From contig CBDEGR010000001.1 in the NCBI GenBank assembly GCA_965237895.1, positions 99,906-163,905 of the forward strand: a stretch of DNA of 64,000 bases. Direction: 5' to 3'. The translations under genes and the position numbers were made by a program. Shown here piece by piece: positions 54,482-55,060 of this stretch. The notes below the pieces were generated by a model. That model worked only from the letters and a program-made list of their open reading frames with translations, ran no database searches and was not told the DNA's origin. Numbering within the stretch: the first letter of the stretch is position 1; every line of letters begins with the position of its first letter. Source of the DNA: Terriglobia bacterium. GTDB taxonomy: Bacteria > Acidobacteriota > Terriglobia > UBA7540 > JAPUME01.

Positions 54482-55060
54482 TTATCCGTCCAACAGGCGG
54501 CAAGCCTGGTAAGTCGCCGTAATGTCGATGGCGTCCCGGCCGCGTGCAATGTGTTGGATGACACCCTGCTTGTCCACCACAAACGTCGTGCGGTTGGCGG
54601 AACCCCTTTCGGTGTTCAGTACTCCATAGAGCGCCGAAACCTCGCGCTTGAAATCGCTCAGCAGAGGATAGGTTACCTCCAGGTCTTCCGCATAACGCTT
54701 GTTTGCATATCGGCTGTCGATGCTGATTCCCAGCACTGCTGTTCCGATTTCTTCGAATTTGGCGATATCAGCCTGATACGCCTTCAATTCCCTCGTTCAA
54801 CCGCCCGTGAAAGCAAAAACGTAGAAAGCCAGCACGACGTTGCGGGTCCCACGAAAATCGGAGAGTTTTGTCTCCTTGCCTTCGTGGTCCGGAAGCGTGA
54901 AGTCCGGGGCCTCGTCGCCCACCTTCAATTCAACCATTTGTGGCGCCGGCGCGTCGGCGCTCCTATTCGGAATCTGCTCGGCTCCCTGCTGACAGGCCGT
55001 GGCGAAAAGAATAGAACCTACCACCGCGACTGCCGGAAAAGTGCTACTAAGACACCCCAT
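54482..55060 (-). CDS. Lipoprotein peroxiredoxin (AhpC/TSA, BCP/PrxQ-like) with in-frame UGA at the peroxidatic-Cys position; probable selenocysteine at residue 88
   Basis: AGGAGG RBS then ATG 55060; signal [23 protein letters not shown]. Track ORFs 54797..55123 and 54482..54787 are in the same frame, split only by TGA (54797-54799). The joined reading is [41 protein letters not shown][UGA][28 protein letters not shown]...YPLLSDF. The UGA replaces the Cys of the T(P/G)GCTxE motif. Confidence 0.7.
54755..54790 (-). promoter_or_regulatory. Candidate bacterial SECIS hairpin downstream of the prx UGA
   Basis: mRNA after the UGA: acgagg-GAAUU-gaa-GGCGUAUC-AGGCU-GAUA(U)CGCC-a-AAUUC. It has a 5-bp lower stem, an 8-bp upper stem with one bulged U, and a 5-nt loop whose GG lies 24-25 nt after the UGA. 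Confidence 0.55.

Follow-up and report, generated by a model that had tools for sequence, protein, structure and literature searches.

Comparison with Described Selenoperoxiredoxins

The TxxU peroxiredoxins are an experimentally verified family of bacterial selenoproteins (PMC13188914, PMC9312934, PMC1794560), with PrxU of Eubacterium acidaminophilum as their prototype (PMC13188914, PMC9312934), and repeated conversions of cysteine to selenocysteine (Sec) have been described within the peroxiredoxin (Prx) family (PMC1794560). Here, we analyzed a stretch of 64,000 nucleotides (nt), henceforth the window, from a Terriglobia bacterium (assembly GCA_965237895.1, contig CBDEGR010000001.1, positions 99,906-163,905 of the forward strand; GTDB lineage Bacteria; Acidobacteriota; Terriglobia; UBA7540; JAPUME01). 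On the minus strand of the window, at positions 54482-55060, lies a peroxiredoxin gene, prx, of 192 codons, which runs from an ATG at 55060 to a TAA at 54484-54482 and carries an in-frame UGA as codon 88 (54797-54799). A preliminary description of this DNA had proposed that the UGA encodes Sec, that it is followed by a hairpin of the Sec insertion sequence (SECIS) type, and that the gene had been split in two by the caller of open reading frames (ORFs). It had also stated that Sec-containing peroxiredoxins are known in bacteria, which the established TxxU family bears out (PMC1794560, PMC13188914). The correspondence between Sec and Cys in the alignment column, the UGA itself, the hairpin and the selection acting on the downstream codons all agreed with the proposal, and we consider it highly probable from these comparisons that the UGA is a Sec-decoding codon in a functional selenoperoxiredoxin gene.

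When Cys was put in place of the stop, the joined protein matched the Pfam AhpC-TSA profile (PF00578) with an E-value of 3.4e-39 and a score of 134.1 bits (cut-off, 26), and it also matched Pfam Redoxin. The AhpC-TSA match extended over residues 47-171 and positions 1-124 of the 124 in the profile; the domain spans the UGA and is covered end to end, in agreement with the complete AhpC/TSA fold first noted across this codon. The closest solved relatives were the entries of Mycobacterium tuberculosis AhpE (Rv2238c; E = 1.8e-25). Of the eight best PDB matches, six were AhpE entries and two were archaeal Prx/Bcp proteins with similar E-values, and the pairwise alignment with AhpE gave 45% identity over 130 residues. 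None of the curated NCBIfam models, those for PrxU, BCP and PrxQ included, reached its cut-off with the joined protein: the PrxU equivalog model NF040737 scored 77.7 bits for a cut-off of 270, the BCP model NF006960 77.1 bits for a cut-off of 140, and the PrxQ model NF053650 58.8 bits for a cut-off of 260. The initial assignment to the BCP/PrxQ type was abandoned in view of the last two scores and of the AhpE entries among the best solved relatives; judged from these matches, the term AhpE-like would describe the protein better.

Like the TxxU peroxiredoxins and PrxU, the window protein has the AhpC/TSA fold, predicted Sec in place of the peroxidatic Cys within a T-x-x-U motif, a hairpin inside the gene after the UGA, and Cys-containing homologues. 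It differs from PrxU in its low score on the equivalog model and in having AhpE-type proteins as closest relatives, in its predicted signal peptide or lipobox, in its VxxxTxxU rather than PxxxTxxU motif, and in that its clade comes from aerobic soil Acidobacteriota and not from anaerobic Clostridia. The gene works like those of the TxxU selenoperoxiredoxins and adds a member to their kind; it is not a PrxU equivalog. With M. tuberculosis AhpE, a 1-Cys peroxiredoxin, it shares the AFTG-x-C/U, LLSDF and ANR-x-TFVVD motifs. However, AhpE has Cys at the peroxidatic position and keeps the active-site Pro (FFPLAFTGIC), whereas the window family has an extra invariant Cys near the C-terminus and a predicted signal peptide. 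To our knowledge, AhpE has neither a signal peptide nor a C-terminal resolving Cys.

The In-Frame UGA and the Peroxidatic Cysteine

The translation of 54482-55060 on the minus strand contained a single internal stop, the TGA at codon 88, and no frameshift. The ORF listing and the translation agreed that the two minus-strand ORFs 54797-55123 and 54482-54787 share one frame and are parted only by this TGA, as had been reported, and 55060-54482 is, on such evidence, in all likelihood one intact gene that ORF calling cuts in two. The predicted Sec lies in the sequence FTGG-U-TRE, and AFTGG-[U]-TREL aligned with AFTGI-C-QGEL of AhpE, the Cys of which is the peroxidatic residue. For a wider comparison, the 120 best database homologues, all full length, were aligned (in what follows, P-numbers denote homologous proteins and L-numbers genomic loci of relatives). 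In the peroxidatic column, 74 of them had Cys, within an FTGG-C-T motif, and the remaining 46, which fall among P0001-P0116, had "W". The placement of the UGA on the catalytic Cys was thus confirmed with AhpE and with the Cys-containing homologues, the column correspondence of Sec and Cys being maintained in both alignments.

The "W" homologues all came from short metagenome contigs, nearly all of about 0.8-3 kb. When one of them was checked at the DNA level (P0003, locus L082, 827-1360), the codon was found to be TGA, and translation of L082 under table 11 did not reproduce the JGI protein. The "W" is thus most readily accounted for as an artefact of gene calling with genetic code 4, and the Trp at the catalytic position of the JGI proteins looks like a systematic artefact of this sort on short contigs, which hides selenoproteins as seemingly inactive enzymes. 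Taken at face value, the same JGI gene calls would fit a different explanation, namely that the UGA is decoded as Trp, Gly or Cys, by genome-wide reassignment or near-cognate read-through, with the hairpin acting as a read-through stimulator. A second TGA of the window (3299-3301), in the sequence FDK*TCNCD, a context that we presume to be compatible with Trp, points the same way. Nevertheless, we regard this explanation as very improbable. TGA is the terminator of 7 of the 23 other Pfam-supported genes of the window, none of which has an internal stop, and genome-wide reassignment was discarded for this reason. A peroxiredoxin with Trp or Gly in place of its peroxidatic residue would be inactive, and the homologues have Cys there. 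Moreover, the "W" is accounted for by code-4 models winning on short contigs, L082 failing under table 11, and a tRNA-Sec lies close to the gene in two related loci (L016 and L042), as described below.

We then turn to the codon in genomic copies. A scan of species-representative genomes gave 303 relatives confirmed by tblastn, and the codon was read in the best 80 loci, almost all labelled as Acidobacteriota (Terriglobia, Pyrinomonadaceae/Blastocatellia and Chloracidobacterium). The motif was found at 78 of the 80, and the peroxidatic codon was TGA in 83 out of 83 orthologous copies in this collection, which is skewed to Sec-type genes and gives no Sec:Cys ratio, because one of the two patterns used to find the loci codes for the hairpin peptide. 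The JGI contig L082 provided a further TGA-bearing copy. The presence of TGA across the clade indicates an ancestral state and no lesion of the source genome; a sequencing or assembly error as the origin of the TGA was rejected on the same grounds. Five loci (L025, L037, L038, L050 and L077) contained two UGA-containing peroxiredoxin copies each, in four of them in tandem, about 600 nt apart, and in L038 separated by about 2.3 kb. The hairpin is the same in every copy, and the second ones are of an FT(S/P)G-U-TREL subtype. L054 (CAYXVU010000063.1), labelled as "uncultured Clostridia bacterium", contained a typical member of this clade, which is otherwise confined to Acidobacteriota, and the label is probably a binning or taxonomy error.

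A Hairpin Conserved as RNA Follows the UGA

The SECIS-like hairpin lies inside the coding sequence at 54755-54790 (minus strand), where it starts 7 nt after the UGA and spans 7-42 nt downstream of it. The full element reads GAAUU GAA GGCGUAUC A GGC U GAUA U CGCC A AAUUC, and its conserved core, GGCGUAUC-A-GGC-U-GAUA(U)CGCC, occupies 54782-54761. The loop G's (54773-54772) are found 24-25 nt after the UGA; the spacing range of the bSECISearch model is reportedly 16-37 nt, and this distance would fall inside it. The core GGCGUAUCAGGCUGAUAUCGCC was nearly invariant, synonymous sites included, and showed compensatory changes. In the set of 84 sequences, 95.7% of the hairpin pair cells formed standard pairs, the bulged U was present in every sequence, and the loop was GGC in 72 and GUC in 12. 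Similarly, 94.8% of the cells were paired in an alignment of 40 sequences, as opposed to 16-48% in slid controls, and none of 500 shuffles of this alignment reached the observed pairing or covariation score. RNAalifold independently returned the upper stem. Pair 30:45, in which the third base of an Ala codon faces that of an Ile codon, was GC in 64 sequences, AU in seven, UA in two and GU in four, and was unpaired in seven; the mixture of GC, AU and UA at this pair points to compensatory changes. The covariance analysis of orthologous loci, suggested in the preliminary description, thus gave a positive result.

The codons of this stretch were analyzed as well. Codons +7 to +10 were TAT-CAG-GCT-GAT wherever these residues were encoded, with zero codon entropy in the 84-sequence set. 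By comparison, the conserved Tyr at codon -8 was mostly TAC, the conserved Asp at codon +27 was mostly GAC, and the synonymous entropy of the flanking codons was 1-2 bits. In the Cys-type homologues, the peptide was variable across the hairpin stretch, KEMQAYQFNLSKF being an example. The Cys-type gene in L083 encodes the same YQADIA peptide as the Sec-type genes by means of TAC...GAC ATT codons and forms no hairpin, and it is a natural negative control. These alignments indicate that the upper stem is under selection as RNA. Regarding the lower stem, GAAUU/AAUUC, the residues that it encodes (E and K-F) are conserved in the Cys-type proteins too, and pair 22:51 was held in 49 of the 84 sequences; therefore, only the upper stem is specifically supported. 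Of the hairpin as originally drawn 7 nt after the UGA, the position, the upper stem and the loop GG were retained, and the lower stem did not receive specific support.

As a reference, the E. coli fdhF SECIS, the sequence of which was confirmed in 5,419 E. coli genomes, was folded. Both elements are intragenic hairpins that directly follow the UGA, and the upper stem of each has one bulged U. The apical loop is CA-GGUC-UG in fdhF and CA-GGC-UG or CA-GUC-UG in the window clade, closed by A-U in both. The elements differ in loop size, which is 3 nt (or 5 nt) in the window and 4 nt in fdhF, and in the distance of the loop G's from the UGA, 24-25 nt and 19-20 nt, respectively. The likeness to fdhF remarked upon earlier holds for the single bulged U but not for its arm, since it is located on the 3' arm in the window hairpin and on the 5' arm in fdhF.

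A chance nonsense mutation, a pseudogene or a sequencing error in a gene for a Cys-peroxiredoxin, with the hairpin as a coincidence, would be another way to explain the split gene. The folding of the 66-nt context is unexceptional (z = -1.0) and there are other damaged genes in the window, both of which are compatible with this explanation. However, TGA was found at the same codon in all 83 copies, which belong to different species, and the hairpin is kept with compensatory changes and invariant synonymous sites. We consider such an accident extremely improbable, and the earlier argument that a chance nonsense hit on exactly this codon is unlikely is upheld by the 83 orthologous copies.

Selection Downstream of the UGA and Sec Machinery

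The window gene and its counterpart in L001 were compared after the UGA. The 104 codons aligned without gaps, with 78% amino-acid identity, and contained 36 synonymous and 23 non-synonymous differences; the 45 codons upstream gave a similar picture. This comparison indicates that purifying selection acts on the stretch that follows the UGA. In two scans of the window for in-frame TGA with coding signal on both sides, the only real frames were prx and a gene for a HipA_2-like kinase.

With respect to the Sec machinery, a tRNA-Sec with anticodon TCA was detected about 3.5 kb downstream of the UGA-containing prx in two metagenome-assembled genomes of Terriglobia, at 13743-13837 of L016 and 13831-13925 of L042. 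The L016 tRNA scored 78.5 bits with Rfam RF01852, for which the cut-off is 47. Scanning of the L016 ORFs around this tRNA-Sec gave no SelA, SelB or SelD domains, and one of its neighbors was a pyridine nucleotide-disulphide oxidoreductase gene. Acidobacteria that use Sec have been documented (PMC1794560, PMC12013277).

Several observations weigh against Sec insertion at the window locus. First, no tRNA-Sec, SelA, SelB or SelD was found within the 64 kb: ARAGORN returned no tRNA of any kind, and Pfam scans of 49 window ORFs gave no SelA, SelB or SelD, the only AIRS proteins being purL and purM of a pur cluster. The window is about 1% of such a genome, and the lack of sel genes in it therefore says little. 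Second, folding of the single sequence only modestly beat shuffled controls; the hairpin gave a free energy (dG) of -10.8 kcal/mol and z = -2.4, with 5 of 200 shuffles folding as well, and z was only -1.0 in the 66-nt context. The genuine fdhF SECIS gave z = -1.3 by comparison, so that folding energy alone is not decisive. Third, no Rfam SECIS family matched 54600-54900 in a permissive scan or the whole window at gathering thresholds, and neither scan returned any other RNA family; this result is uninformative because bacterial SECIS elements are short and diverse. Fourth, the universally conserved Pro of the PxxxTxxC motif is Val in this gene. Thr85 and U88 of the PxxxTxxC(U) motif and the conserved Arg157 are present and invariant, and the Pro position is taken by Val81, so that the motif is only partly kept. 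Among the 84 copies of the UGA-type clade, 79 have Val here and most or all of the others have Ile, and the Cys-type homologues and AhpE retain Pro. Finally, there is some gene decay in the source genome, represented by a truncated clpB and the second gene with an in-frame TGA.

Some of these observations are also what would be expected if the family truly consisted of selenoproteins and the source genome had lost its Sec machinery, leaving a relic in which the UGA acts as a stop and the gene is decaying or without function. The absence of sel genes from the window and the decay nearby, with clpB cut to residues 1-211 and a TGA within the HipA_2-like gene, are in line with this possibility, and loss of the Sec machinery is the remaining serious rival. 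Even so, it appears quite unlikely. The gene is otherwise intact, with neither a frameshift nor a second stop, the hairpin is canonical, and the ungapped codons after the UGA keep both the identity to L001 and the synonymous excess reported above; the share of the genome covered by the window also applies here. Hence, Sec decoding remains our preferred reading, and we infer that Sec is inserted in the source organism.

Active Site, Probable Export and Proposed Mechanism

The codon of Thr85, of the T-x-x-U motif, is located at 54806-54808, and that of Arg157, the conserved active-site Arg of peroxiredoxins, at 54590-54592 (both on the minus strand, as are all other codons given here). Thr85 was invariant in the alignment of 43 protein sequences, and so was Arg157, the ANRTTFV of which aligned with ANRGTFV of AhpE. 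The same alignment showed an invariant Cys187 (54500-54502), a candidate resolving cysteine. The mature protein has no further Cys, and this one was present in the Cys-type homologues as well as in 83 of the 84 genomic copies, from which we infer a resolving role. The Cys-type homologues of Acidobacteriota (e.g., Bryobacteraceae P0035 and P0085) resemble the window protein in sequence (55-63% identity), length, signal peptide and the C-terminal A-C-S-R-L cysteine. Unlike prx, they have a TGC codon, keep the Pro (AFYPAAFTGGC), vary in the peptide after the Cys and possess no hairpin.

At the N-terminus, a signal peptide with a lipobox-like LFATA-C is predicted (54992-55060). The LFATAC sequence mentioned in the preliminary description is present in the translation, its Cys being Cys23 (54994-54992), and F-A-T-A-C23 fits what we take to be a permissive PROSITE-type lipobox pattern. 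The n-region of the leader contains no Lys or Arg. All 84 family members had a hydrophobic N-terminal leader; the closest members, L001, L002 and many Pyrinomonadaceae, showed the same ...AC-Q/...SC-Q motif, and other members resemble ordinary signal peptides. Going by these leaders, the protein is probably exported and, in the source genome, lipid-anchored.

A working mechanism can be outlined, in which recoding follows the scheme established for bacterial SECIS elements. Codon 88, the UGA, would be read by Sec-tRNA(Sec) brought by SelB; in complex with this tRNA and GTP, SelB would bind the upper stem-loop with the ribosome positioned at the UGA. In the mature enzyme, Sec88 would be the site of peroxide reduction, with the help of Thr85 and Arg157, and Cys187 would probably resolve the selenenic acid formed there as a selenenylsulfide. 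A putative extracytoplasmic thiol reductant would then reduce the selenenylsulfide. When the ORFs within 5 kb in 79 loci were clustered, no conserved thiol reductase was found near prx; hsp20 and clpB were the only genes that recurred beside it, in about 15 loci including the window.

It is possible, and we propose it only tentatively, that the window gene is part of a large and perhaps undescribed clade of exported or lipoprotein AhpE-like selenoperoxiredoxins across Acidobacteriota, in which the switch from Cys to Sec goes together with a change of Pro to Val or Ile, the intragenic SECIS is nearly invariant and no curated model applies. The reviews that were searched made no mention of an exported Val-for-Pro clade in Acidobacteriota, and no Solibacter Prx selenoprotein was found in the supplement of PMC1794560. 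If the proposal is true, aerobic soil bacteria would possess an extracytoplasmic selenoenzyme that current annotation systematically splits or gives a false Trp. The finding does not open a new category, as selenoperoxiredoxins with a TxxU motif and SECIS elements inside the gene are both well known from bacteria. The finding points to abundant soil Acidobacteriota spending selenium on an exported peroxide-scavenging enzyme, and the clade offers a natural paired series of Sec/Cys and Pro/Val for asking why Sec replaces Cys in peroxiredoxins. For annotation, the two fragment ORFs should be merged as one selenoprotein gene. The same annotation error would concern hundreds of Acidobacteriota genomes, with a false catalytic Trp in the JGI data, and the clade is not covered by any NCBIfam model.

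Gene Start and Neighboring Genes

A Shine-Dalgarno sequence, the AGGAGG noted previously, was found at 55074-55069 on the minus strand, 8 nt upstream of the ATG at 55060. Further upstream, 55113-55141 on the same strand contains a sigma-70-like promoter, TTGTGA-17-TATAAT, which is a consensus match only, with 10 of 12 positions. The spacing of AGGAGG and the sigma-70-like match favor ATG 55060 as the start over GTG 55123. Between the divergent promoters of prx and hsp20, at 55167-55286, there is a perfect (GGCT)30 array, or (AGCC)n/(CCAG)n when the minus strand is read; the -35-like hexamer of prx follows about 26 nt downstream. The array was absent from all fetched relatives and could be a slipped-strand, phase-variable spacer.

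The clpB gene (55946-56740, plus strand) was truncated: of the 890 aa of ClpB in the syntenic L001, it retains residues 1-211, with about 2.2 kb missing. The junction lies near 56690-56718, and the next gene is that of homoserine dehydrogenase (56712-58082, minus strand). The same truncation was observed in an independent ENA contig, L081, indicating that the clpB deletion is real and not an assembly error. The HipA_2-like kinase gene (PF20613, 1.4e-13) is found at 2798-3799 on the plus strand, with its in-frame TGA (3299-3301) in the context AIVFDK*TCNCDG, and is followed by its usual partner, a DUF3037 gene, at 3822-4604; the kinase gene is probably a pseudogene. Downstream of prx, 53231-54430 (minus strand) encodes a DUF6807 protein (5e-77), a gene that also adjoins prx in L001. 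The DUF6807 protein has a lipobox-like leader, MKSILDLRLWAPLAGLLLIFSC, and the true start of its gene is probably near 54262.

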